Assembly (NCBI GenBank): GCA_964016885.1
Contig: OZ024742.1
Span: 298,220,001-298,284,000 of the forward strand
DNA from: Eledone cirrhosa
Lineage: Eukaryota
Reading direction: 5' to 3'
DNA length: 64,000 nt
In this document: positions 2,151-56,812 of the stretch, one piece after another
How the letters are laid out: each line of letters starts with the position of its first letter
How positions within the stretch are numbered: position 1 is the stretch's first letter
Made by a program: the position numbers and the translations under genes
Notes under the pieces: generated by a model
Database searches by the model: none
What the model saw: the letters and a program-made list of their open reading frames with translations, nothing else
What the model was told of the DNA's origin: nothing

Positions 2151-3479
2151 TGTAAATGTGGTCAGTGCTATGAAGGGCATCCAGCTGTAAAATCCCCACC
2201 CAAATTTATAGTTCCATCAGACCAAGGTACAAAGTGAACAATTTTGGCCCAAACTTGTCTCCTGATGTAAACAATATGTCTAACCCATGCAAGCATGGGA
2301 AAATGGATGCTAAGCAGTGATGATGATGATATATATATATATATATATATTAACATCATTTCATTTTACGTCCGCTTTTCCCTGCTTGCAAGGGTGGGAC
2401 GGGAACTGATTCGCATATATACTGATTCACATATATACATTTAGTCAACTTCTAATAATCTCCTTACTGCTGGTGCCATGAAAAATGCACCCAGTAGATT
2501 CACTAAGGTAGTTGATAATAGGAAGAGTATCCATCTATAGAAACCATGCCAAAAGAAATGTTGTAAGGACTCTTTAGTTGTGTCAAGAGCATAACAATCT
2601 CACAAGTGCTGGTGATATGATAAATACACTCAGTATCCTTTACAGGTGGATGACCTTCCTGTTATCAACCACGATAGTGGGTCTACTGGGTTATAGGAAG
2701 GGCATCCAGCCATAGAAAACTTGAAAAACAAAGAGCCACGAAGACTCTTCACTGGTGTTGAAGACAAGAAAACCTCTTTGGTACTGGTACTACAATAAAA
2801 TGTGCCTGGCGAACTCAAAAGTACAGGAACATATGTAAGCCAGATGATATCCCTGACCCATCTGAGAGGTTCGTAGAGCCAATTAGGTTCTGACTTTGCC
2901 TGTGACAACCCATCTAACTTTTGTTAGCAGAGAGAACAGATGTTAAATGATGATGATAGTAATGAAGATGATATATTTCAAAATACATGAGAATTGCACT
3001 GTAAAGCAGATTAGAGTAAAGCAGTTTAGAGTGATATAAATTAATATTTGTCAAATAATTGGATAAAAAAACAGTTTAAGCATACATATTAAACTAAACA
3101 TATTTTATACTGTGACATAATGGTGCTCCTGGGAACTAGCTCTATTGTTAATGACACAAAAAGAAAAAACTATTGGCTGCCATTAGGAAGGGCATCTAGT
3201 TGTAGAAATCATGTACCAAAAATGGAAATTATGAGCAAGGTGTGGTCTTCCTTTCCTTATCCAGGTTCAGATCTTGACAGTTTATCCATTCCGTACCAGA
3301 ACAGAAAATGAACATAAAGTGATAATGTTGATGATGATAAATGTAAACACACACACTCACAGACAGACAGTCATACACACACATACACACACACACATCA
3401 CATACACACATACATACATACATACATACATACATACATACATACATACATACATACATACATACATACATACATAGAT

Positions 3480-5170
3480 ATATAGGAATGGAGTTTGGTC
3501 AAGATAAATGCTCATACATGACTGTAAAGCGGGGAAAAACAACAATCCAATCTAGCAACTGTTTCACCGATTTCTGATGAGGACTGCTACAGATACCTGG
3601 GGATAGATGAGAACATATCCTATAATGGTATCTGTAATAAAGAAAGCATACCAAGGAATACTACACCCAATTAAGAAAGATCTGGTCATCGGAACTCTCT
3701 GCGCAAAACAAAACAGTGGCTCACAATGTGCTTGCTGTGCCTGTCCTCACACCAACGTTTTGAATACTCAATTGGACGATAGACGTAATCCGAGCAGTTG
3801 ATGTTGGAACTCGAAAAATACTGAACAACATCGGAAACTTCCACAACAACAGTGGCATCTACCGCCTTTACTTGAAATGTAAGCAGGGAGGCAGAGGCCT
3901 AACATCAGTCCAGACAACATTTGAATGTCGCATCTTATCTCTCCGACAACATCTGTGAACCTCGAAGTGTAGGAGCCCGTTTCTCGAGCAAGTCTATCTG
4001 CATGAAACAGATGAGACCATGAGAGTTGGGAAGGAACTCCTTGAGTGATATTCCCTGTGTGATAATCAAAAACTCACACCCAGGGATGTTGCTCAGCAGT
4101 ATCGCAGTGAATCCATGGATGAAAAACTGCATGCCTATCAGCAAAAAGTCATGCATGGATATGTTGCCAAGAAGCTCCAGAGTGAGAGTAACATAGATAA
4201 GGAAAGTAGTCTATCTTGGACCAACAACCGCTATATTGGCTCCCACTTTGAAGGATACGCTTTTGCAATCCAGGAACAGGAGATTAGCATGAAATACCTG
4301 ATTCACAAAAGAGATAGGGATGCAGGCAAAACACCTAGATGTGATAACAAGTGCAGACTATGCAGAACTAACATCGAGGATATCACCCATATCATCAGCA
4401 GCTGTCCAAAGATGGCATCGCGGTACTATCTACCTATGAGGCATGATGTAGTGGCCAAAACACTGTACAATGCAGTTCGTAAAAAAGATAGCCCCGATAA
4501 TAAACACATTAAAAGCTACAGCAATGTGGAAGACATCCATGTACATAATATGAAAGAGTACTGGTTGAATGTTCCAGTAAAAACCCCAATAAAATGCAGG
4601 CATAACAGACCAGATATTATGATATGGGACAGGGAGAAGAAAGCATGCACAGTAGTGGAAATTAGCTGCCCAGCAGATGCCAATATAATATAAAAGATTA
4701 GTGAAAAGGAGAACATTTATGCAGAACTGATGAGAAATCTGCAGATACTCCACCCTGATTACATCTTCAGATTTATGCCTGTGATTATTGGGGCACTGGG
4801 ATATGTTAGTAACTGCCTCAATACAAATCTTGAGAAGCTAGGCTTTACAGGAACAGACAGAATACAACTAGTTAGGAAATTACAAGTACAATCCATTAAT
4901 GGAACAGTAAAAATATGTAAGACTTTCCAAATATTTTGCATCTAATAACTGCATATACACATATACAGATGCAAAGCATATACACATGCACACATACAAC
5001 TCAAAACATACACATCCACACATACAATAACATCCATATCTACACATGCATGCATACATACATACCTACCTAGTTGATGTTGTGTAAATTCCAATGAGAG
5101 AGTCTTGTGTCTATGTTAGAAACCGACTCTCTATTGGTAAAACTTTGTGAAATTATAAAACCAGAAGAAC
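3480..5170 (+). mobile_element. 5'-truncated non-LTR retrotransposon with restriction-like endonuclease (R4/NeSL/Hero-type), pseudogenised
   Basis: ORF 4115-4693 has a CCHC knuckle (CRLC..EDITHIISSC), RHD, and PD..E motifs (NRPDIMIWD..VEISCP). The frame continues past the stop as KISEKENIY..PVIIGALG to 4945. Upstream YRYLG RT remnant ~3587. Flanked by TA/TACA repeats. Confidence 0.85.
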
Positions 5171-13570: not shown

Positions 13571-13589
13571 ATAATAAGGTAGATGAAGC

Positions 13590-15650
13590 AGGAACAATAA
13601 GGTAGATGAAGCAGTCAAGGCCAAGAGACAGGCATGGAAAGAATGGAAGAACGGGGGGAGCAGGGTACATTACATAGAGACCAAGAGGGAAGCTAGGCGA
13701 CAAGTATACTTAGCTAGGAGGGAAGCAGAGGATAGAAAATTCAAGCATGTTTTACAACGTGAGGACCAGAAACAGGAGGTATTCAAGATTGCGAGGCAGT
13801 GTGTCAGAGATAGTTGTGATGTCATTGGAGAGAAGTGTATCCGGAATGATAAAGGTGAGCTTGCCCTCACAAGTGCTGAGAAGAAAGATGCATGGAAGAG
13901 TCATTATGATAGATTACTAAATGAGGAGAATGCATGGGAAGAAGAGACCCTACCCCACGTAGACCCTATAGAGGGACCAGCAGTACAAGTCAGCGGCAGC
14001 GTAGTAAGTAAGGCAATCAGAGATATGAAGATAGGGAAGGCAACCGGTCCATCGGGTATAGCTGCCGAGATGCTGAAGGCATCTGGGTCTGTAGGTCACA
14101 CTATAACCACACGTATCGTTAACCAGGTAATACTAGAGGGGGCCATACCAAAAGATTGGTGCAGTAGCATCATTGTCAACTGCTACAAAGGTAAAGGCGA
14201 TGCACTAGATAGAGGAAACTATAGAGGTATAAAGTTGATGGACCAGGTCATGAAAGTAACAGAAAGAGTTATAGCACAGCTGATTAGGGACCGGGTGAAT
14301 ATAGACGAGATGCAATTTGGGTTTGTACCAGGGAAAGGCACCACTGATGCGCTCTTCCTTGTGAGGCAATTACAGGAAAAGTACCTAGCTAAAAGTAAGC
14401 CACTCTACTTGGCATTTGTCGACCTTGAGAAAGCCTTTGACAGAGTTCCACGTGCAGTAATCTGGTGGGCTCTTAGAAAACTAGGAGTAGATGAATGGCT
14501 TGTGAAAGCGGTACAAGCCATGTATAGGGGAGCAGTCAGCAAAGTTAGGATTGGCAATGAGTATAGCGAGGAATTTAGCGTACAGGTTGGGGTCCACCAG
14601 GGCTCTGTTCTTAGCCCTCTCCTGTTCATCATAGTCCTGCAGGCAATAACGGAGGAGTTTAAGACCGGATGCCCATGGGAACTCCTGTATGCTGATGACC
14701 TCGCACTCATAGCTGAATCTATGGTAGAACTAGAGAATAAATTCCAAACCTGGAAGCAGGGACTAGAGAGAAAGGGCCTCAAAGTCAACATGACAAAGAC
14801 TAAGGTCCTTATAAGTAGACGAGAAAACAGAACCCAGATCCCCTCAGGGAAATGGCCTTGCTCAGTATGTAGGAAAGGTGTAGGTAGGAACTCCATTCTT
14901 TGCCCCAAATGCAAACAATGGGTACACAAGAGATGTAGCGGGATCTCAGGAAGCTTAATTAAGAATGTAGGATTCACATGCAGCAGCTGTGCTGAAACAG
15001 CAAGCAAACAGCCACAGGAAACAAGTACCACCAATCTCTGGGAGGGCCCTGTAGAAACAGTAGACAGCTTCTGCTACCTAGGTGACCGAATTAGCAACGG
15101 AGGTGGGTGCTCAGAAAGTACAATAACTAGGGTAAGAACGGGATGGAAGAAGTTTAGGGAACTACTACCACTGCTAGCTGCAAAAGGCTTCTCCCTCAGA
15201 ATGAAAGGCAGACTGTATGATGCGTGTATCCGAACAGCGATGTTGCATGGTAGTGAGACCTGGGCGCTGAAGGTGGAAGACTTACGTAGATTAGAGAGAA
15301 ACGAAGCCTGCATGCTCCGATGGATGTGTAACAGTAATATACGTGAACGACAAAGCATAAATGAATTGAGAGAGAGACTGAGCATAAGAGGAATCAAATG
15401 CTGCGTGCAGGAGAGGCGGTTACGCTGGTATGGACATGTGATGCGTATGAAGGATGACAGCTGCATAAAAAGGTGCAGAGCACTAGAAGTTGATGGAAAC
15501 CGCGGAGTGGGGAGACCCAAGATGACTTGGGATGAGGTGATAAAAGCCGACCTTACCCAACTACACCTCTCAAAGTCAATGACACACGACCGTGACTTCT
15601 GGCGTCACGCAGTAATACAGGGTACCCGACCTCCCATGGGTACATGCTGA
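13590..15650 (+). CDS. RTE reverse transcriptase (N-truncated) with internal PHD-like finger
   Basis: Motifs [37 protein letters not shown]. The frame is open upstream of the 14025 ATG. Confidence 0.93.
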   Translation, partial: RNNKVDEAVKAKRQAWKEWKNGGSRVHYIETKREARRQVYLARREAEDRKFKHVLQREDQKQEVFKIARQCVRDSCDVIGEKCIRNDKGELALTSAEKKDAWKSHYDRLLNEENAWEEETLPHVDPIEGPAVQVSGSVVSKAIRDMKIGKATGPSGIAAEMLKASGSVGHTITTRIVNQVILEGAIPKDWCSSIIVNCYKGKGDALDRGNYRGIKLMDQVMKVTERVIAQLIRDRVNIDEMQFGFVPGKGTTDALFLVRQLQEKYLAKSKPLYLAFVDLEKAFDRVPRAVIWWALRKLGVDEWLVKAVQAMYRGAVSKVRIGNEYSEEFSVQVGVHQGSVLSPLLFIIVLQAITEEFKTGCPWELLYADDLALIAESMVELENKFQTWKQGLERKGLKVNMTKTKVLISRRENRTQIPSGKWPCSVCRKGVGRNSILCPKCKQWVHKRCSGISGSLIKNVGFTCSSCAETASKQPQETSTTNLWEGPVETVDSFCYLGDRISNGGGCSESTITRVRTGWKKFRELLPLLAAKGFSLRMKGRLYDACIRTAMLHGSETWALKVEDLRRLERNEACMLRWMCNSNIRERQSINELRERLSIRGIKCCVQERRLRWYGHVMRMKDDSCIKRCRALEVDGNRGVGRPKMTWDEVIKADLTQLHLSKSMTHDRDFWRHAVIQGTRPPMGTC

Positions 15651-31238: not shown

Positions 31239-31281
31239 CATATAATATATAAGATCAAAAGATGGTTAAATGAGTTCCATA

Positions 31282-31352
31282 TATTTTATTATGCGCATTT
31301 CAAAAACAAATATCATCATGCAATAACATTTGTGTTTTCATCAGATAAAATA
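31282..31352 (-). ncRNA. Type I hammerhead ribozyme (P1 left arm)
   Basis: Exact reverse complement of the 31424-31494 motif. Confidence 0.85.
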
Positions 31353-31423
31353 GGACATGATATAAAGATTAAAAAACACTGCACTATCCACAAGTGTTTT
31401 TTAACCTTCATATCATGTCCTCC

Positions 31424-31494
31424 TATTTTATCTGATGAAAACACAAATGTTATTGCATGATGATATTTGTTTTTGAAATGCGCATAATAAAATA
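31424..31494 (+). ncRNA. Type I hammerhead ribozyme (P1 right arm)
   Basis: tattttat-CTGATGA-aaacacaaatgttatt gcat gatgatatttgttttt-GAAA-tgcgca-TA-ataaaata. 8-bp stem I, long stem II, palindromic stem III (ATGCGCAT). Predicted cut after 31486. Confidence 0.88.
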
Positions 31495-31739
31495 TATGGA
31501 ACTCATTTAACCATCTTTTGATCTTATATATTATGTATACTCCAGTCCTACAAACTGTAGAGTGCTTCTTATCCGATATCTGCATTGCTTTATTGTACTA
31601 CAATAAAACTCACCTCCTACATATATATACATATATATATATAAAATATATATATATACACATGCATGAGTGCATATATATATGTGTGTGTGTGTGTATG
31701 CATGTGAGTATATATATATATATACATATATACATAAAT

Positions 31740-33310: not shown

Positions 33311-34527
33311 CAACACCCATTCCAATAGGACTCCTTATTTGTCCCCTATGTTTATATTTTGTCATTTTGTCCACAGATAAAATAAAAAGCTTATATCTGC
33401 TATTACCTACATCAGTTCATAAATGAAAATCATTATAAACATCAATGAAGCTTCTGTAATATGAAAAAAAAAATGCAAGAATAAATTTTAATTGGAAAAA
33501 TAATAGAATTATCCCACTATTTACAAAATATCTTCCATTTTCCATAGTGGAGGCATTGTTTTTGCATTGCCATTTCCATGCTGGTAAGGATTAGATGAGA
33601 CTTTCTTTAGGCAGTATTCTATGGCTAGGTACTGTTCCTGATGTCAACCTTTATTTCTGAGTGAGCCACCTTTCCCACTAATCTCTAAACATGAAAACAC
33701 TAAGCTGTGAGACATATTGTTTATGCAGGACATTCTCTTTAGTTTTGCTGGGGTGATGTAATCTACCTGATGCTAGTAAATGAACTGAGAATTTAGGTTA
33801 GAGGGGACTCTTTTGACTTGATGGGAACAAGACAACTTCTCAATTGCTGGTGCCACCCAGTGTATTAGAAGAACTCAATAGACAAAATACAAACATTACC
33901 CAATATAATGTTAGTGGTAATCACTATCAGAGAACTCTTATTAATGATATTTGTTTAGGGCAGTGGGGTGGTAGTATCAGCAAAGCTTCAGACAACATAT
34001 TTTGTGGCATAAAAAGTACCAGTTCAGAGGTGTGAGATTGGCAGAAGTGTTAAAGAGTTGGATGGGATGCTTTGCTGTATCTGCTACAAGACTGCCCGCT
34101 GGACAAAACATCAATCCATTGCATTGCTAACCAATACCTACTGTTGGCACTCATTTTCAGCTGAATGAACTGAAGGAATGGGAAATGGAATATTTTGCTC
34201 AAGAACACAACATGCCACCCAGTTTTGGGAATTGAACCCATAACATTACGTTCATAAATCCAACACCCTAACCACTAGGCCCACACTATCAAAAATGAAT
34301 CTATGGCCACTTTTGTTCCATTGTTGAGTGTTTAGTTGTTGTTGATGCACTGAACTATAAAAACATTTCCTTCAACAATTCACATGCTAAATTCAAAATT
34401 TGCACAACTGTCCCACCTATGATACTAGACATTGCAAATAAAAAAACTGACAAAAAATAATTATTTGGTTAATGCCTGTGGTATCAAGTGAATATAAATG
34501 CTTTAAAATAAACATGTGGATACACAT

Positions 34528-35452: not shown

Positions 35453-36255
35453 TTAATATGGAAGAGCTGCTACAGGACTAGAACTGTTTTATTCATGAGA
35501 AATCATCAGGAAGCTGACTGTCCAAGTAAAATGGTAGTATTTATATCTTTCCTTATCTGGTGGTAGGAGAGGGTGGGGATTGGGATGGGTGGAGGTCATT
35601 GGTTGAAGGAATTAAAGAAAAGGGAGTTCATTAAAAGCTAATTCTTTAAAGCTATAAAATTAACAAAGGCAGAAAGAATACAGTAAGCAAGTTCAAAATT
35701 GGAATACCAATCCTTGTTTATCACTTAGACTAACAATGCCTGTAAGACAGGTGTCTACAGGATGGGTGGGGTTCAATGGTTTAAAGAAAAGGGAAATTCT
35801 TTAGAAGCTAATTCTTTAGAAGCTAATTATATCAACAGATCTGTTGATGGAACCCTTTCTGCCTTTGTTACCCTTATTTCAGCCTTAAAGAATTAGCTTC
35901 TAAAGAATTTCCCTTTTCTTTAAACCACTGAACCCCACCCATCCTGTAGAGACCTGTCTTACAGGCATTGTTAGTCTAAGTGATAAACAAGGATTGGTAT
36001 TCCAATTCTGAACTCCCTTTTCTTTAATTCCTTCAACCAATGACCTACACCCATCCAAATCCCCACCCTCTCCTACCACCAGATAAGGAAAGATATAAAT
36101 ACTACCATTTTACTTGGACAGCCAACTTCCTGATAATTTCTCACGAATGAAACAGTTCTAGTCCTGTAGCTCTTCTATATTAAAACTTTTATACTCTGCA
36201 ATGTATTAAGTACTTTACTTACTGTGGTTACCTCCGATTCAACCCGGAATAACTT
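35449..36255 (+). mobile_element. Fold-back element family P2 (~350-bp arms plus tail) with two degenerate hammerheads
   Basis: 35449-35830 is inverted at 35850-36187. HHR motifs at 35465-35515(-, GAAA>AAAA) and 36124-36172(+, CTGATGA>CTGATAA). Embedded in (TA)n. Confidence 0.88.
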
Positions 36256-37536: not shown

Positions 37537-37597
37537 TATTTTATTATACATATTTCAAGGGTACTAATATTTAAGTACGCTTTCGTCAGATAAAATA
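37537..37597 (-). ncRNA. Type I hammerhead ribozyme
   Basis: Minus: tattttat-CTGACGA-aagcgtact taaatatt agtaccctt-GAAA-tatgta-TA-ataaaata. Intact core, 8-bp stem I, stem II 8 of 9 bp. Confidence 0.85.
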
Positions 37598-38463: not shown

Positions 38464-38590
38464 ATTTATTAAAATAACAGATTAAAGTTTAAGCAAAGAA
38501 TCGCTGCTTTCACCCTTAACGGGATCTTCAGAAGATCCCGTTAAGGGTGAAAGCAGCAATTCTTTGATTAAACTTTAATCTGTTATTTTA

Positions 38591-38596
<6 letters not shown>
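38464..38596. repeat. Near-perfect palindrome (family P4) centred on 38530 with HHR-like core
   Basis: 66-bp arms with a 1-nt loop. The minus strand reads CTGAAGA-tccc gttaa gggt-GAAA-gcagc across the axis. Confidence 0.88.
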
Positions 38597-38672: not shown

Positions 38673-38728
38673 ACTGCTATATATATTTCGATGATAGCCA
38701 TTGAATGGCTATGACCTCATCAGGCAGT
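38673..38728 (-). ncRNA. Type I hammerhead ribozyme
   Basis: Minus: actgc-CTGATGA-ggtcatagccat tca atggctatcatc-GAAA-tatata-TA-gcagt. Intact core, perfect 5-bp stem I, palindromic stem III. Confidence 0.87.
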
Positions 38729-38799: not shown

Positions 38800-41700
38800 A
38801 TATATATATAAAACAGAAGATGTCTGTCTGTTTGTGTAACCGCATGCATTTCTACATTTTACAACCGATTTGCACCAAATTTCATACATAGGTTTCTGAA
38901 GTCATACATAGGTTTCTGCGCCGTAGGCTATTTTATTTTTCCGTACATCGATTGTGGGGCCTCTCCGGGGGCAGATAACCCCCTTATGCCTCTTGCTTGG
39001 AGTCAGCAGTACTACTCCATAAAGGCCCCATAATTCCTGCAGTTTGCCTCCCATCTTCAGCAAAATTAATCTTTCGTTTGCTTATGGCCTACAAATAAAT
39101 TGCACAGAAATTCAGGTAGGGGACCCTTTGGGGGGCAGTAAACCGACTTGATGAATGTTGAAGTTGATATCATCAATGCAACAAAACGTCATAACTGCTC
39201 GAGTTGTGTTGGTTTTCACGAAGCGAGACGTATTGGTTACCCTTGAACTTATCAAGTAAAAGTTCATGTGTTCGGAGGGGGGGGGGGGGGGGGCAGGAGC
39301 GCCTTCGACTTATCTATTGAAGTTCACATTAACACTGTATTAGTACCTGATAACTTTTGAAGTTTACATTCGATTTTAACTTTACCGGACACATTGGTTA
39401 CCCATTGCCTAAAGATGATGTTGAAGACACTGTCTATACCCGGGACAAGCAAGGGAGCCCCAGGGGGCAGCAAGCCCCGGTGGGTCATTTATTGAATTTG
39501 GCTATTGTAATGCAGCAAAACGTCATAGCTTCGATAATTGGTAGTCCAATAAAACGAATTTCGACTTAGTTGTTATTCATGTACTACAGATGAAGATACA
39601 CTGAGGCACATTTACTTTCATTTCAATTCAGCAAAAGGACCCCTCGTGGACAATGAGCCCAATCCATTAACCTATAAAATTTCAAACTGCCACAATAAAA
39701 AAGCACCATAACCTCAGGAGTTTATACTTGATTCTTACAAAAACTAAACAAAATGGTTATTGCCGGCCATAAGATAAAGCACCACACATTCGTTATCACT
39801 TGAATTTTGCAAGGGAACCTCCTGGGGAGAGCAGTGAGCCCCTTTGGACCACTTTTAAAGTTCTTATTATGGTTGCAGCAAAGCATTTCCACTTCTGGAA
39901 ATAAAAGTCAATTTAAACGAAAGTTGACGCATCGGTTACTCATGTCCTACAAATGGAGTAGCGAATTTTAAAATCCCCCTGACTTAACTTTAGTTTGTTT
40001 AGTTAACTTTAGGATGATTGAATTTAATTTTTCACCCAGTTGTCTCCCCGTGTAATTGCACCACAATTAAGTGCGGAATAGGGAGTTAAATTTTTTACCT
40101 TGAACTTTGGCGTCATTTCACACTCCTAACCAAGAAAGCGCGATTTAACCCAGGTGTAAATGTTAATGCCTACTGTATGTAGATTGTCCTATTTCACACT
40201 CATGCCTAAACTGTGCGAATGATTGATTAGTTTTTGCACCCGGTTGTCTCCCCTGTTTAATTGCACCTCAATTAAGTGCGAAATGGCGACCTCTGGCTAA
40301 CCACACATCAGTGAGTTGTGTTCAGTAGATTTCATCACATTTATTTGTATTATCTAACCAATCAGACAACTCAAGTGGTGTTCATTGAGCGAAATCACTC
40401 CTATTTATATCGGTCAAGTCCAACCTAGGATCACACTTCTTTTTTGGCTTTTGACAAGTGGTAGGTTTTTTTACATGCGTACTCTCATAAGCTACCCCAT
40501 GTTTCTGAAACGCATGCTTCTTCAACATTTGTCACCTTAAAGGAGGTTTAGTTAATGTGTTTATGGTCATAAGGTTCCAGTTTATCATGCTGTGATTTTT
40601 CGGCCATTTTTGCCTGTATCCTTTCAATGGTTAGTACTTACTTATTGCTATGTTCAAACTGAACAAACATACTGACACTTATATACCTACCACTGTAGCC
40701 ACACTATTTAATTTCCTTTATTATAGGTAGTCCATACGCTGCATTGCCCCTAACTTAAAACCTGAAATTTGACTGGTATACAAAATCTTGCAAAACATAC
40801 CCACTTTCTCAGACCACATAGTTTTATCACATTTTTTCACAATTTATATCCGTGTTTAAATTTGTTTACTTAAACGTTATTTGTCCACTATTTATTGCTC
40901 TCCTTGGTTAATTTTCTAAAAGCAATGCCCCCCAAGAAAAGAACTTTCATTGGTCAATTATCTAATGATGCAAGTAGATCTAAGCGAAGGCGTCTCACTG
41001 GAGATGTAAATGCGACTGCGATCAGGCTGTCACAGAATGGAGGAGGATGACAGTCGGCATGAACTTTGACAGAACAAAGGTGCTGCCGCGACTGCTGCTG
41101 CTCGCGATCGAGAGGATGAAGGTCGACGTGCCATTTGATGAAGCAAGGATGCCACTGCAACAGCCACTGCTTGCACTCGAGGGGATGAAGGACGACGCGC
41201 CGTTCGATGAAGCAGGGACGCCACTGCCACTGCTGCTGCATGAAATACTGAAACCATAGAGCAATGACGTGGCCGACTTCTGCAAAGTGAACAGCGGCAA
41301 TGATCGTTACGTAGCATTTCTAGGACTTGCAATTCACGATGGTTGTTGAAGGCCTTTAACTACGACCCCGCCTCCGACTACGCTGTGCTTGCCTGGAAAC
41401 CTGTACGTCTACAAGTCCCTTGACTCTATGGCTGATCTGGACGAAGTTGTTAATTACCCCACAGAATTTCTTAACTCCCTAGACCCTCCCGGATTGCCAT
41501 CACACTTACTGCGACTTAAGAAAGGTGCCCCTGTCATGCTCCTCAGGAATTTGGAACCCCGAATGCTTTCCAACTGCACGCGTCAGGTCGTCCAAAAGGC
41601 GGTGCCTCATGTTATTGAGGCAACAATACTTACAGGATGTGGTAAGGGGGATACTGTCTTCATACCAAGGATACCTCTCATTCCATCCAGTAAAGACATT

Positions 41701-42774
41701 CCTTTCACATTCAGAAGGCTGCAATTTCCTCTCAGTTTCGCCATATCGATTAACAAATCACAGGGTCAGACGCTGATGGTCGTAGGGCTTAATTTAGAAG
41801 AACCGTGCTTCTCCCATAGTCAACTATATGTTGGCTGCTCTCGAGTGGGGAGCCGACATAACCTATTTGCTTTTGCAACTCTCGAGAAAACCCAAAATAT
41901 AGTCTATAAGGAAGTTTTTTAGGCACCCCATCCGCCAACAAGTAATCGCTGTTTTGTTTTTTTGTATAAGTGCTTGCATTTGCTGTATCCATGTGCTATT
42001 TTTGTCCTTTTGATAATACCACGTACGCCTCTGAGGTTGCTTTTGCTATATGTTATAAATGTTCAATGTCTCCGTTTTACGTATTTATATGTTGCTATTA
42101 TGCTTTGCTATCGATGTTCCGTAGTTTTAACCTAATTAATCTACTTTTCCATCCATCTTATTTACACATTTTTTTGACATTCCAGCATAATCTTGCCAAG
42201 GCCGTTTTTGTGGCCACTGACTGTTACATGCTTTTCTGGGTTACAATCTCAAGTAACAAGCAAAGCAAATACGACACACCAAAGTGGTGTGAAGGACTTC
42301 TTAAAGGCCACAACCTCTAATCAGAGTCGTCTTTGCTGACAGCTCTGCCACTGGGACTTTTACGAGTGAACGATCCAAGGCCCTCTTCAGGGCCACCAAG
42401 TTTAAATTGTTACCATCAGATTCATCTTTGCTGGCAGCACTGCCGCTGAGATATTTCAAAGTGAACGTTAAAAGGTCCTCTTCAGGGCCACCAACTTTAA
42501 ATTGTAATCGCTGGCAGCACCGCCGCTAAGACTTTTAAGATTGAACGATCCATGGCTCTCTTTAGGGCCACCAACTTTAAATTATTATCGCTGGATTCGT
42601 TTTTGCTGGCAGCACCGCCGCAGATATATTTCAAAGTGAACGTTCAAAGGCCTTCTTTAGAGCCAACACCTATAAATTGTTACTTCTATAGTCGTGTTTC
42701 ACGAAAGTCTTTCATTTCATTTGAACGACTACTCCATTGAGAGTTATACCGGGCAACGCCGGGTACCTCTGCTA

Positions 42775-42775: not shown

Positions 42776-43422
<647 letters not shown>

Positions 43423-43452
43423 AGAACAAAAGATGGTTAAAAGAGTTCCATG

Positions 43453-43523
43453 TATTTTATTATGCACATTTCAAAAACAAATATCATCATGCAATAATAT
43501 TTGTGTTTTCATCAGATAAAACA
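43453..43523 (-). ncRNA. Type I hammerhead ribozyme (P1 left arm)
   Basis: Reverse complement of the 43647-43717 motif; core intact. Confidence 0.83.
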
Positions 43524-43646
43524 GGAAGACATGATATGAAAGTTAAAAAACACTTGTGGATAGTTCAGTTTTAAATCAACATATCATATGTTGATTTAAA
43601 ACTGAACTATCCACAAGTGTTTTTTAACCTTCATATCATGTCTTCC

Positions 43647-43717
43647 TGTTTTATCTGATGAAAACACAAATATTAGTGCATGATGATATTTGTTTTTGAA
43701 ATGTGCATAATAAAATA
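43647..43717 (+). ncRNA. Type I hammerhead ribozyme (P1 right arm)
   Basis: tgttttat-CTGATGA-aaacacaaatattagtgcatgatgatatttgttttt-GAAA-tgtgca-TA-ataaaata. Predicted cut after 43709. Confidence 0.83.
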
Positions 43718-43800
43718 CATGGAACTCTTTTAACCATCTTTTGTTCTTATATATTATATATATATATATATATGTATATATATGTATATATATATGTATC

Positions 43801-43831
<31 letters not shown>

Positions 43832-43966
43832 GAGCTTCTACAGGACTAGAACTGCTTCATTCGTGAGAAATCATCAAGAAGCTCTTCTATATTAAAACAG
43901 TTATACTCTGCTATGTATTGAGTACCTTACTTATTGTGGTTACCTCTGATTCAACACGGAATAACT
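43832..43966 (+). mobile_element. Short P2-family element: inverted degenerate hammerhead (43832-43884, minus) plus tail
   Basis: Minus: gagcttc-tTGATGA-tttctcacgaat-GAAg-cag ttctagtc ctg-TA-gaagctc. The tail matches 36169-36255 and ends at the same ggaataact|(TA)n point. Confidence 0.85.
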
Positions 43967-43989
43967 TATATATATATATGTATATGTAT

Positions 43990-48800: not shown

Positions 48801-51560
48801 GATATGAATGAATAATTTCTCATTCACAGTAATATTATTGTTGTCTTATACAAACGTTTGTTTTTTTTTTATCAAACATACTGTATTTGATTTATATAAC
48901 TAAATTAAGTGAAAACTGGAAGAGAAATTGCCACTTGATGTAAGATTACAAAATTATAAATGAATCAATAAACATTTTGAAAGAATAATATTTTCAAATA
49001 ATTATCTCTAAAAATTATTTCTCAAAGAAAAATGTTTTTTAAAGTATCTGCATCAAGATAAATTATATAAAAAATTACTTTAAATTTCCCAAGAAATTAT
49101 ATTATTTTTTTTAATTGAACATTATACAAAAATAGATTATTTTTTTGAAAAAGTAGGTGAGGCAAAAAAAAAAGACAGAATGAGCAGAAACTATGAATAA
49201 CAATCTCTAAGACAAAACCAGAAATTTGAGGGATGGAACTAGGTAAAAATATCGACCCCAAAATATGACTGAGACATTTTCTTATTATTTATTTTCATTA
49301 CATCATCTAGAGGAGTGGTATAAAGAGAATTTCCAAGAATGGTATAAAGAAGGGAAGGATGAGAGAATCCTTGTTGCACCTGAAGACATGGCTTGAATGC
49401 TTTCAACAGAATAGACTTCACGAAAAGTACCTAAGAGTCAGGTGATGGTGTTAATTAGAATGGTGGATTAAGTCTACCAGACAAGTAGGCCACAAAGAGA
49501 CAAAGAGACAAAGAGACAAAACAAATTTCATAAGTTTGAGGCCCTAGAGATACCACCAGTTCACTGTTCTAGACAGATACCATATTTAACAATTTCAGAG
49601 GGTGGGATAAAGTTGAGATATGCTGTCCAACTATGGATGTGGAATGTGCTTGTTTTCTTTTTCCTCATTTTTATATTATTTTGTTTTGTTTTGTTTTTGC
49701 TGTATATATATAAAGGAATATAAAATTTAATCATTTCAAAATGCAAAAGTGATTTATTTTAAGTATATTTTATGTGGACATGGCCTAATTTAAACAATCT
49801 TATTATTCTTGCAGTTACATTGTATGCATTGCTGATGCTATCTTCTAAAAGGCATTAAGCATTCTAGTTCTACTGTAGACATGCTGTAATGTTCTATATT
49901 TGTATTATTTGCACTCAAAACCTCAATAGTATATCTTCAGCTTAAACTGTATTTAGAAGAAAGTTGTTTGCTTGCATGACAGATGTTAATTCAGTTTTCA
50001 GCAACATAGCTGTGCAGTATTTTTACTTTTTATGTATTTCCATTCCATCCTCTAAATATTTTGTGACAAACATAGCCTCTACATTGAGTCATTAGGATTT
50101 GGAATAGTGCATATTTTTATAGGGGTTGTTAGCCCAATGTTTAACTGTACTTTGGTTAAACAATAATACTTTTTCTCACAAGAAAAAAGTTCACTATCTT
50201 GACCATAGATAAAAGGCAGTGCCAGTAAAGAAATAAGAGTCACAGAACACTTTCATGCATTTCAGCTAAACACTAATTCTTTATCTTTAAAGTTGTTCAT
50301 TAACTACTTCAATATCATTAATCTTTCAAACCAGAAAGATTTGAAGTTTCATTTAACATTATATGTAACACATCTAACTTTCAGAGGCAATAAAACAACC
50401 TAAAATTTATAAACAAACATATGTTAAATGGAGAAAGTGCTGTAATTACAAATAACACGTTATCTTACATTTTGTTTTACATATCAATTAGTTAGGGAAA
50501 AACAGAATTTAATTATTATATTTCACATCTTTGGCAGCTTGACAAAATACTAATATTTACAAACAGGCCAGACCAAAAGAGACAGATGCATGTGAAGCGA
50601 TTAGTATGGGGCTACTTGCCTTAAAGTTCTAGTTCTTATATTTTGTCCAGTTACTTATGTACATGTATATATCTGTAGCATATACATAAAACATGTATCA
50701 AGCAGTGAAATGGGACCCTACATTTTGCATTTAGCTGGGGCTATTACCAGAATTTCAGAGCTACATTTTACAATTGGCCTAGGACTATTAATGGATTTGC
50801 AAGGATTTGCTTAATACACACACATATGCACACACACACAGGGCATTCAACTGTAAAAGAAAACAGCCAAAATACAGTTTCATTTGAGCAAGGTACGGGG
50901 CAGCCAACTATCCAGACTTTTCTCATAACATGGACGATCTGTCTAACCCATGCAAGCATGAACAAATAAGGCATTAAATGGTGATGATGATGATGATGAT
51001 GATTCATATATATATATATATATATGCAAACATATCTATATCTATATATATATATATGCAAACATATATATATTTCGCCAAATTTCATTGCATTGCTGTC
51101 TACTCCACGATATTCATGTAACGTAATGTACATATTTTTCTTCATCTCTACCTCCACACTCCATATTTCGTATCAAGTCCAAATAGCCAATCTATTGCTA
51201 AAACAATCTACATTTTTTGTATTCATTAATTGTTAGATACGAAAGTTTTTGTCGTATTGAACAGAACAAATTTTGTATTTTTGTTAATCGCTTGTTAAAT
51301 GCAAGGACCCCATTCAATCATTACCTTCTATCTAGCTACCCAACACCCCTCCCTCCCCCACGCACCACCATTGCTATTACGTGGACCAATCATAAGCCAG
51401 AGCCCCCACGCATCACCAGTATTATTATTACGCGGACCAATCATAAGCCAGAGGCCTATACTATCGCTTGCCTGGTTGCCTTTCGATATATGATGGATGG
51501 ATGGACTGCGGAATCCTGGAGAGTGGAGGAGAAAGAGAAAAATCTGGACGCTCAGCGACA

Positions 51561-52685
51561 ATGCCAAAGATAAGGATAAAGACAAATTCACCTCGTGGAC
51601 GAGAATGCGAGCACTCCTCATTGTTTCGACCGCGGACGGCTAACATAACCCCATCGCCCCCCGCCCCCCACCGCCCCCAACCCCCAAACGCAATCCAAAA
51701 CTTCAGAGTTGGTACCATAAATGTAGGCACCCTAAAGGGTCGCGCTAACGAGGTTGTAGAAATGCTTGAACGTAAGGAGGTCGATGTTTGTTGTATTCAA
51801 GAGACCAGGTGGAGGGGTGGGTCTGCTAGATTCATTGAGGGTAAAAAACGATGTTATAAGCTTTTCTGGGTGGGAAACGACGATGGGCTGGGTGGAGTAG
51901 GAATCATGGTAGCAGAAAAGTGGGCAGATAAGATAATAGACGTAAATAGAGTGAACGACAGAATAATTAAAATAAGACTTGTCCTCAATAGAACTACGGT
52001 GACAGTAATATCTGCGTACGCACCCCAATCCGGACTGCCCGGCACTATAAAAGACAGATTCTATGAGACACTGATGCTAACTACCTCCCAAATATCCGAC
52101 AGTGACTATATAATTATTGCAGGCGACCTAAATGGTCACGTTGGACAACATTGTGACGGCTACGACGAAATCCATGGAGGCTATGGGTTTGGTACTAGAA
52201 ATGAGGAAGGCTCCAGAATCCTGGAATTCTGTGACGCAAATAACCTAACTATCTGTAACACTAACTTCAAAAAACGTGACAATCACCTGATCACCTATAG
52301 ATCGGGGGAACACACAAGCCAGGTAGATTATATCCTTACCAGAAGACGTGACAGAGTGTCTGTTGTAAACACTAAATCCCTCCCCCATGAAGAATGCACC
52401 TCCCAACATAGACTGATAATTAGCGACCTCATAGTCAAGACGAGACGTACTCGACAGCAGAAGAGGACTATCCTCAGGAGAAAAATATGGAAGCTAAAGG
52501 ACCCCACAGCCAGGAATAAATTTCAAAGCATATTACTTGATGCTTTCGACAGTAAGGAAGAACATTTAGAGTCGGACAATATAGAGGGAGAGTGGGAATT
52601 TCTGAAAGCAAACCTGCTGTTGGCGACAGACGAAGTCTGTGGCTGGAGCAGGCCTGTAGGCAGGAGGAGAGTAACATGGTGGTAG
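51561..52685 (+). CDS. RTE apurinic/apyrimidinic-like endonuclease (N-terminal part of ORF)
   Basis: GTINVGTL, CCIQETRW, SAYAPQ, AGDLNGHVG, SQVDYIL, SQHRLI. Confidence 0.93.
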   Translation: MPKIRIKTNSPRGRECEHSSLFRPRTANITPSPPAPHRPQPPNAIQNFRVGTINVGTLKGRANEVVEMLERKEVDVCCIQETRWRGGSARFIEGKKRCYKLFWVGNDDGLGGVGIMVAEKWADKIIDVNRVNDRIIKIRLVLNRTTVTVISAYAPQSGLPGTIKDRFYETLMLTTSQISDSDYIIIAGDLNGHVGQHCDGYDEIHGGYGFGTRNEEGSRILEFCDANNLTICNTNFKKRDNHLITYRSGEHTSQVDYILTRRRDRVSVVNTKSLPHEECTSQHRLIISDLIVKTRRTRQQKRTILRRKIWKLKDPTARNKFQSILLDAFDSKEEHLESDNIEGEWEFLKANLLLATDEVCGWSRPVGRRRVTWW

Positions 52686-54737
52686 AACAGTAAGGTGGAG
52701 GGGTCAATTAAGGCCAAAAAGCAGGCTTGGAAAGTATGGCGGGATGGGGGAAGTAGAGAAGACTATCAAGTGGCCAGGAGGGAAGCTAGGAGAGAAGTGT
52801 ACTTAGCAAGAAGGGAAGCTGAGGAAAGAAAGTTCAAGCATGTTCTACAACGCGATGACCAAAAACGTGAGGTGTTCAGGATTGCTAGGCAATGCGTCAA
52901 GGAAAACCGTGATATTGTCGGGGAGAAGTGTGTACTAAACGACGATGGCACACTTGCCATCACCGACGCTGATAAGAAGGTAGCTTGGAAGTGTCACTAT
53001 GAAAGGCTACTAAATGAGGAGAATAAATGGGAGAAAGACAGTCTCCCCCATATCGACCCAATAGAGGGACCAGCAGTGTTAGTCGAGGGGAGTATAATAA
53101 GTAAGGCAATCAAGGATATGAAGACAGGTAAGGCGGCTGGGCCTTCGGAAATAGTTGCTGAGATGCTGAAGGCATCTGGCACGGTGGGACACACCATGGT
53201 CACCCGCATAGTTAACCAAGTCGTACAGAATGGGGTTGTTCCGAAGGACTGGCATAGCAGCATCATCGTTAACTGTTATAAGGGTAAAGGAGACGCCCTA
53301 GATAGGAGTAACTATAGAGGCATTAAATTAATCGACCAGGTCATGAAGGTCACGGAAAAAGTAATAGCACAACTAATCAGAGAGAGAATTGACCTAGATG
53401 AAATGCAGTTCGGGTTTGTGTCAGGCAAAAGTACCACAGACGCTCTTTTCATTGTACGACAACTACAGGAGAAGTACCTAGCTAAAGGTAAACCCCTCTA
53501 CTTAGCTTTTGTCGACTTGGAGAAAGCCTTCGACAGAGTCCCCCGCTCCATTATCTGGTGGGCTCTTAGAAAACTAGGCGTTGACGAATGGCTTGTGAGA
53601 GCTATACAAGCCATGTATAAAGAAACAGTCAGCAAGGTTAGAATTAACAACGAATATAGTGAAGAGTTTAGCGTAAAAGTTGGCGTCCATCAGGGCTCTG
53701 TTCTCAGCCCCCTACTATTTATTATTGCCCTTCAGGCTATAACAGAGGAGTTCAAGACCGGCTGCCCATGGGAACTGCTATACGCAGACGACCTGACACT
53801 CATAGCGGAATCAATGGCCGAGCTAGAGAAGAAATTCCAAACATGGAAGCACGGCCTAGAATCAAAAGGCCTTAAAATTAACCTGGATAAAACTAAAGTT
53901 CTAGTTTGTAGGAAAGAAAATAAGGCGGCGGTCCCTTCTGGGAAATGGTCGTGCTCGGTGTGTAGGAAAGGCGTAGGTAGAAACTCCATTTTATGTCCTA
54001 AATGCAAAGTATGGGTGCATAAAAGATGTAGTGGGATCACAGGTAAGCTAACTAAGAACATAGATTTTACATGTGGCCGGTGCTCTGGTGCAATAAGTAG
54101 CAGCAAGTGCCCACAAAATACTAGCTCTTTCAATTGCGCAGAGGGTTCTATAGAAATAGTGGACAGCTTCCGTTACCTGGGTGATAAAATCAGCAGTGGG
54201 GGAGGGTGCACTGAAAGTACAGTAGCTAGAGTCAGAACTGGTTGGAAAAAGTTCAGAGAGCTTATACCACTATTAGCTGCTAAAGGGTTCTCCCTAAAAA
54301 TGAAAGGCAGGTTGTACGATGCCTGCATACGAACAGCAATGTTGCATGGCAGTGAGACCTGGGCATTGTGTGCAGAGGATATACGCAGACTAGAGAGGAA
54401 CGAAGCTTGCATGCTCCGCTGGATGTGTAACAGTAATATACGTGAACGGCAAAGCATAAACGAACTAAGGAAAAAATTAGAAATAAGAGGGATCAGATGT
54501 TGTTTATTCGAGAGAAGGCTACGTTGGTATGGACACGTGATGCGCATGAAAGTCGATAGCTGTATAACAAAGTGCAGGGCAATAAAGATAGACGGTAGCC
54601 ACGGAATAGGCAGACCTAGAAAAACCTGGGACGAGCTGATAAACTCCGACCTCACACACTTACACCTCTCCAAGACAATGTCACTGGACCGAGACCTTTG
54701 GCGGTACTCAGTAACAGAGAAGACCCGCCTTACCTAA
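52686..54737 (+). CDS. RTE reverse transcriptase (same frame after the stop codon)
   Basis: All RT motifs including [10 protein letters not shown] and YADD, plus a C4HC3 insertion before YLG. Confidence 0.93.
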   Translation, partial: NSKVEGSIKAKKQAWKVWRDGGSREDYQVARREARREVYLARREAEERKFKHVLQRDDQKREVFRIARQCVKENRDIVGEKCVLNDDGTLAITDADKKVAWKCHYERLLNEENKWEKDSLPHIDPIEGPAVLVEGSIISKAIKDMKTGKAAGPSEIVAEMLKASGTVGHTMVTRIVNQVVQNGVVPKDWHSSIIVNCYKGKGDALDRSNYRGIKLIDQVMKVTEKVIAQLIRERIDLDEMQFGFVSGKSTTDALFIVRQLQEKYLAKGKPLYLAFVDLEKAFDRVPRSIIWWALRKLGVDEWLVRAIQAMYKETVSKVRINNEYSEEFSVKVGVHQGSVLSPLLFIIALQAITEEFKTGCPWELLYADDLTLIAESMAELEKKFQTWKHGLESKGLKINLDKTKVLVCRKENKAAVPSGKWSCSVCRKGVGRNSILCPKCKVWVHKRCSGITGKLTKNIDFTCGRCSGAISSSKCPQNTSSFNCAEGSIEIVDSFRYLGDKISSGGGCTESTVARVRTGWKKFRELIPLLAAKGFSLKMKGRLYDACIRTAMLHGSETWALCAEDIRRLERNEACMLRWMCNSNIRERQSINELRKKLEIRGIRCCLFERRLRWYGHVMRMKVDSCITKCRAIKIDGSHGIGRPRKTWDELINSDLTHLHLSKTMSLDRDLWRYSVTEKTRLT

Positions 54738-55151: not shown

Positions 55152-55278
55152 ATGCAAACATATATATATATATATATATATACAAACATATATATATGCA
55201 AACATATATATATATATATAAATATAAATGAATATATATAAATATATATATATGCAAACATATATATATATATATATA

Positions 55279-56812
55279 TATACAAGCCATGTATAAAGAA
55301 ACAGTCAGCAAGGTTAGAATTAACAACGAATATAGTGAAGAGTTTAGCGTAAAAGTTGGCGTCCATCAGGGCTCTGTTCTCAGTCCACTACTATTTATTA
55401 TTGCCCTTCAGGCTATAACAGAGGAGTTCAAGACAGGCTGCCCATGGGAACTCCTATACGCAGACGACCTGACACTCATAGCGGAATCAATAGCCGAGCT
55501 AGAGAAGAAATTCCAAACATGGAAGCACGGCCTAGAGTCAAAAGGACTTAAAATTAACCTGGCTAAGACCAAAGTACTAGTTTGTAGGAAAGAAAACAAG
55601 GCGGCGGTCCCTTCTGGGAAATGGTCGTGCTCGGTGTGTAGGAAAGGCGTAGGTAGAAACTCCATTTTATGTCCTAAATGCAAAGTATGGGTGCATAAAA
55701 GATGTAGTGGGATCACAGGTAAGCTAACTAAGAACATAGATTTTACATGTGGCCGGTGCTCTGGTGCAATAAGTAGCAGCAAGTGCCCACAAACTACTAG
55801 CTCTTTCAATTGCGCAGAGGGTTCTATAGAAATAGTGGACAGCTTCCGTTACCTGGGCGATAAAATCAGCAGTGGGGGAGGGTGCTCTGAAAGTACTGTA
55901 GCTAGAGTCAGAACTGGTTGGAAAAAGTTCAGAGAGCTTATACCACTATTAGCTGCTAAAGGGTTCTCACTAAAAATGAAAGGCAGGTTGTACGATGCCT
56001 GCATACGAACAGCAATGCTGCATGGCAGTGAGACCTGGGCATTGTGTGCAGAGGATATACGCAGACTAGAGAGGAACGAAGCTTGCATGCTCCGCTGGAT
56101 GTGTAACAGTAATATACGTGAACGGCAAAGCATAAACGAACTAAGGAAAAAATTAGAGATAAGAGGGATCAGATGTTGTTTACTCGAGAGAAGGCTACGT
56201 TGGTATGGACACGTGATGCGCATGAAAGTCGATAGCTGTATAACAAAGTGCAGGGCAATAAAGATAGACGGTAGTCACGGAATAGGCAGACCTAGAAAAA
56301 CCTGGGACGAGCTGATAAACTCCGACATCACACACTTACACCTCTCCAAGACAATGTCACTGGACCGAGACCTTTGGCGGTACTCAGTAACAGAGAAGAC
56401 CCGCCTTACCTAAATATATAGTAAAACCTACTCCAGCCAGTAGGCATCTCTAACAAAATACACCCCGTCCCACCACCACCACCCCCACCCGATCCACACC
56501 ACCCCGTTCTATGTAAAGTTATGTTGGTGCCGCGCCATCGAGGCCGAAACAAATGAGATCGTGTAGGTGTCACGACAAAAAAACACACAGTCCACGCTGT
56601 AATGTGGCCGTGTAGGCAACACGGTAAAAACCTCCCAGACCCACACTGTAAATGTGGTTGGTGTTAGGAAGGGCATCCAACTGTAGAAAACCTGCCAGAC
56701 AGTCCTATGCGAGCAAGACAATCACTCTTGCCTCAAGTGGGACTACCCCCGTCCAAACCCATGCAAGCGTGGAACACGGACGTTAAACGTTGATGATGAT
56801 GATGATGATGAT
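55279..56812 (+). mobile_element. RTE subfamily A, 5'-truncated tandem copy
   Basis: Colinear with 53603-55151; ORF 55289-56413 is open. Confidence 0.95.

Follow-up and report, generated by a model that had tools for sequence, protein, structure and literature searches.

A short Penelope-like element insertion in Eledone cirrhosa with a hammerhead motif on each strand and a likely origin in two reverse transcription starts

Palindrome P1 and its surroundings

The window, the whole 64,000-nt stretch of Eledone cirrhosa DNA that was analyzed, contains a palindrome, P1, embedded in (TA)n repeats (Table 1). Self-BLAST showed an inverted self-match of 300 nt with 92.7% identity at 31240–31534. The palindrome measures about 295 nt, with a stem of about 140 bp and a loop of 12 nt, and together with its tail spans 31240–31622. 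The first-pass annotation had described a hairpin of ~300 bp with a complete 71-nt hammerhead in each arm. This was confirmed for the motif, with the difference that the 300 refers to total nucleotides and not to base pairs. Two substitutions separate the arms of P1, along with two gaps, one of 3 nt immediately beyond stem I and one of 2 nt in the TA end. The axis lies 12–30 nt short of the CATATG sequence that is the axis hot spot of the family. P1 is near the short end of the range of arm lengths in the family; one other locus (L031) has the same layout with arms of 1.8 kb.

The tail is preceded by an 8-nt TA-rich junction and is present on one arm only, the other arm stopping at the TA-rich unit junction. 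It had been taken for a unique, one-sided tail of about 85 bp. It is indeed one-sided, with a length of 83 nt, but not unique, since it maps to positions 1–83 of the repeat unit, where the next tandem unit begins.

Table 1. Positions of P1, its parts and other features in the window
Feature	Positions	Strand	Remarks
LINE RT ORFs, several copies	13587–15650, 51447–54737, 55232–56413		plus fragments
(TA)n target repeat, left flank of P1	31201–31244		
Inverted untailed arm	31245–31380	-	3' end of 5'-truncated element, unit ~3386–3521, terminates in (TA)n
Type I hammerhead motif, 71 nt	31282–31352	-	predicted cut between 31290 and 31289 (H17 at 31290)
Arm junction	31375–31383		3-nt shared microhomology ACT
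Direct tailed arm	31375–31539	+	3' end of 3' UTR/pLTR, unit ~3368–3521, plus TA-rich unit junction
Type I hammerhead motif, 71 nt	31424–31494	+	predicted cut after 31486 (H17)
Stem I of + motif	31424–31431/31487–31494	+	
Core of + motif	31432–31438	+	
Stem II of + motif	31439–31474	+	
GAAA of + motif	31475–31478	+	
Stem III of + motif	31478–31485	+	
PLE tail	31540–31622	+	first 83 nt of next tandem unit (5' UTR, ~80 nt before ORF start)
(TA)n target repeat, right flank of P1	31623–31660		
FANCI_S1 match	33817–34032	+	weak, chance or stray piece
Decayed hammerhead-like motif	36128–36250	+	GUC triplet
Type I hammerhead-like motif, other family	37545–37589	-	beside (TA)n
Near-perfect short palindrome	~38470–38595		flanked by (TA)n
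Type I hammerhead-like motif, other family	38678–38723	-	beside (TA)n
Pif1 helicase 2B domain piece	41350–41922	+	E 6.8e-15
Second palindromic insertion, same family (copy 2)	43416–43754		axis near CATATG hot spot
Related piece abutting copy 2	~43828–43970		mistakable for the tail of copy 2
AP-endonuclease-like frame of LINE	51447–52685		

The 71-nt motif is identical in both arms of P1. It consists of an 8-bp stem I, CUGAUGA, a 36-nt stem-loop II, GAAA, stem III ATGCGCAT and an AUA triplet; the base of stem II is formed by A-U pairs and a C-U mismatch. A motif scan placed the predicted cuts of both strands at the same positions as the first-pass annotation, and its description of the hammerheads as intact holds for the motif as read from the letters of both arms. 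Stem III ATGCGCAT is palindromic. As a dimer it is predicted to form an 8-bp duplex (-10.5 kcal/mol), compared with just 3 bp closing a 2-nt loop in the monomer, in agreement with the earlier reading of a dimer-type stem III of Penelope-like elements (PLEs). The predicted fold of a single arm is weak (z -1.14). Rfam returned 0 matches for the whole window at the gathering score, and a local Rfam search at E<=10 gave 67 chance matches of hairpin or miRNA type, none of them a hammerhead.

Conservation was assessed over 120 arms in the half of the motif left free by the search pattern, with sites counted as variable at >=5%. None of the six core sites varied, while N7 and eight stem sites did, and pairing was kept in 8/8 of the latter (p~0.006, one-sided changes only). 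The constancy of the core and the paired changes in the stems suggest that the ribozyme is under selection in the source elements, where it probably works on tandem transcripts as a dimer or with protein help. As in P1, the minimal PLE hammerheads described in the sections cited of Cervera and De la Pena (2014, PMC4209133) are of type I and have a weak palindromic helix III that was read as dimer-dependent. P1 differs from them in a longer helix I (8 bp) and in a helix III of 3 bp with a 2-nt loop, and is therefore not the minimal form without helix III.

The first-pass annotation had proposed a count of genomic copies and axis positions. In the 3.0 Gb of genome searched, a 33-mer of the ribozyme has 11,086 exact copies and its reversed control 0; axis positions differ between loci. 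A 78-nt short-read contig with a depth of 70 matches 31326–31403 without a difference and spans the arm junction of P1, with about 24 letters on its short side, under the 31-letter bar of the tool; it possibly derives from the same sample. Given the copy number relative to the control, 40 palindromes with different axes and this contig, P1 is neither a chance structure nor a one-off assembly fold-back. Palindromes in AT-rich repeats are prone to mis-assembly, and the whole P1 stretch is spanned by no contig among those of the four sequencing runs compared. An artefact of assembly or library fold-back is nevertheless extremely improbable: real substitutions and gaps separate the arms, the tail is on one side only, 40 such pairs obey one rule and the axis is crossed unchanged at single-locus depth.

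Copy 2 carries the stem III variant ATGTGCAT on both arms and the tail on neither. The two type I hammerhead-like motifs of other families each have an AT-rich stem III that is palindromic or nearly so. The near-perfect short palindrome lies beside the second of these motifs and is probably the inverted stub of a second PLE family.

In a search for host genes over 85 frames between 19.5 and 45 kb, no host exon tied to P1 was found. The FANCI_S1 match of this search is weak genome-wide (E 0.1) and a better FANCI match lies on another contig (C5), so that an intronic position of P1 is not supported by this search. The Pif1 piece is likely a Helitron remnant, and the LINE copies belong to an element that we take to be RTE-like.

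The parent element and its clade

The arms and tail of P1 are parts of a unit of about 3.5 kb, in which the tail occupies positions 1–83, the ORF starts at 163, the hammerhead lies near 3422–3484 and the end is at ~3529. Longer copies run 5' through a 3' UTR of ~960 nt into the ORF. The unit occurs both as head-to-tail partial tandems (pLTR) and as inverted 5'-truncated copies. A 31-mer of the tail has 9,850 genomic copies; only 179 copies continue from the tail into the 5' UTR. Long unbroken ORFs were found in two loci (L065:1185–3596 and L069:1212–3596). The second is complete, with an unbroken frame of 794 codons directly behind a pLTR that is 97.6% identical to the arm plus tail of P1. These frames suggest recent activity. 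The ORF and the domains described below are those of linked full copies; P1 itself has no ORF and this copy is most likely inert.

The predicted fold of the reverse transcriptase (RT) is nearest to telomerases, with TERT at rank 1 in Foldseek (E 7.7e-7) and a VIA comparison with telomerase RT giving Z 15.1 and rmsd 4.6 over 288 aligned residues. The YRDD motif is invariant in 31 aligned sequences. The C-terminal domain is predicted to be nearest to the GIY-YIG domain of I-TevI (Z 8.8, rmsd 2.3, 89 aligned), and the top five rows of the fold comparison include I-TevI, T4 EndoII, UvrC and Hpy188I. In Foldseek, GIY-YIG nucleases head the list for this domain, with no match at E<=0.001. Its Y, Y-x-G, R and H are invariant. 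Since Pfam gave no RT or GIY-YIG match for the ORF, both calls rest on motifs and predicted folds; for six homologs, Pfam gave one sub-threshold GIY-YIG match. In total, 34 homologs of the ORF product were found, and a PDB sequence search with the ORF returned nothing meaningful.

The N-terminus of the RT contains RRLRWIA, which is RWK-like with the K not kept, and SDKTNN (DKT). The linker between the RT and the endonuclease is Asn-rich and predicted to be disordered. The CxCX5C linker motif (CNCPAKNKC) is present, as are CNLC (CxxC) and CLH (CxH), with CCHH absent; the cysteines and His of these motifs are invariant in 14 aligned sequences. On these motifs and the (TA)n preference, compared by eye, the element is classed as a Hydra-clade PLE. 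The earlier reading of P1 as a PLE was right, and its arms and tail are now tied to an element with RT and GIY-YIG domains.

Hydra-clade PLEs such as Hydra-1_Obim and Penelope-13_HM (Craig et al. 2021, PMC8557442) share with the Eledone family, in the sections cited, the C-terminal GIY-YIG domain, RW-x, DKT, CxCX5C, CxxC and CxH, as well as (TA)n targets and a 3' type I hammerhead. The protein resembles that of Hydra-1_Obim by eye. Nevertheless, this is a separate family with a different hammerhead, in which the 36-nt stem-loop II, its A-U base and the perfectly palindromic stem III ATGCGCAT are unlike the features given there for Hydra-1_oBim. Compared with the Hydra-clade PLEs of that description, which are mostly <3 kb, the Eledone unit is longer at ~3.5 kb, and the family is set apart by the Asn-rich linker, the long 3' UTR and about 10^4 copies (PMC8557442).

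Sequences with 95–100% identity to the element are present in contigs of two other organisms, which may reflect close relatives or transfer. Upstream of the tail at one locus (L228), there are four repeats of a 16-nt sequence that begins at the ribozyme cut site.

Arms, tails and the origin of the palindrome

The anatomy of the family was sampled from the first 100 of the 11,086 ribozyme places (contig C1, 0–50 Mb), which gave 73 loci. Among these, 120 arms carry the ribozyme, and 38 loci contain a total of 40 back-to-back pairs. Two of the 40 pairs (L121) look like one duplicated locus. The tail was found on exactly one arm in 35/40 pairs, on both in three and on neither in two, compared with about 50% one-tailed pairs expected if the arms were independent (p=1.4e-6). 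Counting against the rule are the five exceptions and the tailless copy 2. Among the exceptions, one is a read-through of a tandem, one is probably a double insertion and one has an interrupted tail; several are nested or tandem. With 35 of the 40 pairs one-tailed and the tail mapping to unit 1–83, the inverted-head-plus-tail geometry of PLEs that had been recognized in P1 holds. Outer ends abut (TA)n in 107 of 117 cases.

Arm lengths in the family range from tens of bases to kilobases, and the variable axis often cuts into the ribozyme. In 38 of the 40 pairs an arm is closer to its own partner than to the median other copy. The untailed arm is longer in 18 pairs and the tailed arm in nine, with eight equal within 10 nt (n=35); 18 versus 9 is by itself no significant bias. 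Of all arms, 26/120 end in a 7-nt bin at the palindrome CATATG, corresponding to 26/67 of those ending in unit 3290–3470. Apparent clusters of ends at more 5' positions reflect breaks of the alignment at internal repeats and were left out. In 6 of 61 tails the start is no more than ~20 nt away from the unit junction, and some of these are tail-only partners facing long untailed arms.

These arm lengths favor two separate RT starts over fold-back of a single cDNA. The GIY-YIG nuclease of the element would nick both (TA)n strands. On an uncut RNA that spans the junction, one RT would then start at the TA-rich unit junction and the other 83–91 nt further 3', at the tail end. The same region of RNA from one source would be copied by both, each stopping early, and short self-complementary sequences, with CATATG the most frequent, would serve to join the 3' ends of the cDNAs. 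Joining two identical cDNAs requires a self-complementary stretch, which would account for the hot spot. The model is based on genomic footprints, and one-sided deletions at palindrome centers could likewise yield unequal arms.

Self-priming, as proposed for such junctions in PMC3846280, would make the palindrome from the same element in another way: a single cDNA would turn back on itself at a short palindrome and serve as its own template, with arm lengths becoming unequal through subsequent deletions. The axis hot spot at CATATG fits this account, as do the rare variants common to both arms of a pair. A rare T (33 exact copies genome-wide) is present on both arms of P1 and on both arms in most two-armed loci fetched for the variant, with three discordant loci; a second variant has 205 copies, and six doubles were found among the first 100 places. 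Shared variants would, however, be expected equally from one source RNA. Moreover, simple fold-back of a tailed cDNA would never leave the tailed arm shorter than its partner unless deletion followed. In 18/27 unequal pairs the tailed arm is nevertheless shorter, by up to 2.3 kb, and in three loci (L120, L122, L143) a tail-only partner stands opposite a long untailed arm. Fold-back is thus unlikely, and it is kept at that level because central deletions may have followed insertion. Gene conversion from arm to arm was rejected as unneeded for the shared rare T, which marks sub-lineages and is mostly found on both arms.

Two RT starts and extension of both strands were reported in vitro for the Poseidon PLE of Anolis (PAc; Frangieh et al. 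2024, PMC11167929), whose hammerhead is protein-assisted and dispensable and which is predicted to form a dimer. According to the sections cited, PAc resembles the two-start model for Eledone in having the tail between the two starts, both target strands cut and extended, an AT-rich target and a mainly uncut RNA template. PAc belongs to a different clade, and its tail consists of 30–40 nt within the ORF start, as opposed to 83 nt of 5' UTR in the Eledone family; the former was studied in vitro and the latter is known here from genomic footprints alone (PMC11167929). The Penelope element of Adineta vaga (Arkhipova et al. 2013, PMC3846280) shares head-to-head inverted pLTRs, palindromes at the junction and a tail on one pLTR. 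Self-priming was favored in the sections cited of that paper, whereas the arm lengths in Eledone favor two starts.

The state of the template was assessed in 30 ORF-linked copies at the cut site. Of these, 23 read straight through, two begin ~5 nt or less 3' of the cut, one shows repeated jumps there, three start at the junction and one inside the tail. RNA templates appear to have been mostly uncut. If the hammerhead cuts part of the template pool in vivo, so that a minor fraction of copies owe their 5' ends to cleaved RNA, this would add to the two-start model rather than replace it. Besides the two copies starting next to the cut and the one with repeated jumps, genome-wide searches with mismatches gave 194 matches at the cut and 113 at a control 2 nt upstream. 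On inspection, about 10/30 and 7/30, respectively, were true truncations (a script had flagged 12/30 and 8/30), with estimates of about 65 arms starting at the cut versus about 26 at the control. This ~2.5-fold excess comes from 30 loci each and one control only, the cut site is AT-rich and self-complementary, and most copies cross it. Partial cutting of the template is therefore possible but rather doubtful.

The predicted hairpin and other hammerhead RNAs

The rod fold of the full 381 nt is predicted at -210.8 (+) and -221.9 (-) kcal/mol, compared with -115.1 (+) and -126.0 (-) kcal/mol when the ribozyme core is held open. On both strands the predicted advantage of the rod amounts to ~96–99 kcal/mol. 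The antisense arm is transcribed first and each polarity contains one ribozyme, an arm order consistent with the earlier view that a transcript of either strand holds one ribozyme preceded by its antisense. With a rod advantage of this size and the antisense arm made first, read-through RNA of the whole palindrome is predicted to be silenced, not switched. Of the first-pass proposal of a rod that competes with the ribozyme fold, self-silencing is retained as a prediction for a transcript of the whole palindrome; a switchable RNA is not, given the energy gap.

Hammerhead viroids carry hammerheads in both polarities within a rod. What defines a viroid-like RNA is a unit of fixed extent whose two polarities each carry a hammerhead that can release monomers from multimers. 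P1 has one hammerhead motif per strand, and the likeness to such RNAs suggested at first pass extends to this feature. It is superficial only, since both ribozymes are copies of one and the same sequence and the axis and arm length vary freely. A selected RNA that alternates between rod and ribozyme folds, in the manner of viroid-like RNAs whose two polarities both carry hammerheads, would also be in line with a motif that looks conserved between subfamilies. Contigs from runs of other organisms, which contain sequences related to the element and a junction with the CATATG axis, would fit as well; the junction was seen at a loose contig end in a run from another organism and study. Such an RNA is highly improbable nonetheless, as the rod is favored by ~96–99 kcal/mol, axis positions and arm lengths (tens of bases to kilobases) differ between loci and often cut into the ribozyme, and re-insertion of the palindrome as a fixed unit was never seen in the 73 loci.

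With only one ribozyme per polarity, no unit-length RNA can be cut out of P1. A hammerhead viroid or viroid-like RNA was rejected on the variable axis and arms in place of a fixed both-polarity unit, the single ribozyme per polarity and the stable rod. A non-LTR retrozyme was rejected likewise, since P1 has inverted arms that are continuous with a unit bearing an ORF, not short units arranged head to tail. Retrozymes, as described in the sections cited of PMC7229834 and bioRxiv 10.64898/2026.07.22.740005, are short, non-coding and carry a type I hammerhead, as does P1; they are tandem, whereas P1 is inverted with no array of short head-to-tail units. One ribozyme per polarity and a variable axis distinguish P1 from retrozymes and hammerhead viroids alike.

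In all, P1 is very probably a short insertion of a Hydra-clade PLE in (TA)n, made of two back-to-back hammerhead-bearing 3' ends that likely stem from two RT starts, with a read-through RNA whose hairpin is predicted to lock the ribozymes off. It is likely an ordinary by-product of insertion, since it is a short, back-to-back duplicated PLE end and its ribozyme motif occurs more than 11,000 times in the genome. The layout is ordinary as well. In the sections cited of PMC8557442, PLEs typically have inverted 5'-truncated copies with a one-sided tail, and Penelope-13_HM of the Hydra clade is given as a 5'-truncated inverted copy with a hammerhead on each strand. Pairs of opposite-strand hammerheads 100–700 bp apart were described in Schistosoma (PMC4209133).

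A broader reading, which we consider evenly balanced between right and wrong, is that this family of ~10^4 copies reads out PLE integration. A protein dimer would prime both nicked (TA)n strands at two fixed sites on one uncut RNA, insertions would be born as one-tailed head-to-head palindromes, and the tail-primed RT would often stall at the start of the other. If this is true, the genome contains, as a by-product, thousands of near-perfect hairpins that bury ribozymes. Such hairpins could supply dsRNA pathways, such as small RNAs and A-to-I editing, and in this way silence the family.

No earlier paper with a counted test of the one-tail rule and arm asymmetry was found in the open-access literature. 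Beyond the works cited, a search with coverage of few subscription journals gave no twin-priming account of PLE inversions and no paper on octopus PLE hammerheads. What gives the family some value is its size and youth as a Hydra-clade expansion, in which at least one 794-codon frame is unbroken, together with the counts obtained for the one-tail rule and for arm asymmetry. Thousands of loci are available for counting arm lengths, the one-tail rule and the axis hot spot, and the family makes two points testable from sequence, namely two priming events versus fold-back and template cutting by the hammerhead in vivo. In three loci (L020, L021, L181), family copies are clustered and inserted into one another's (TA)n flanks.
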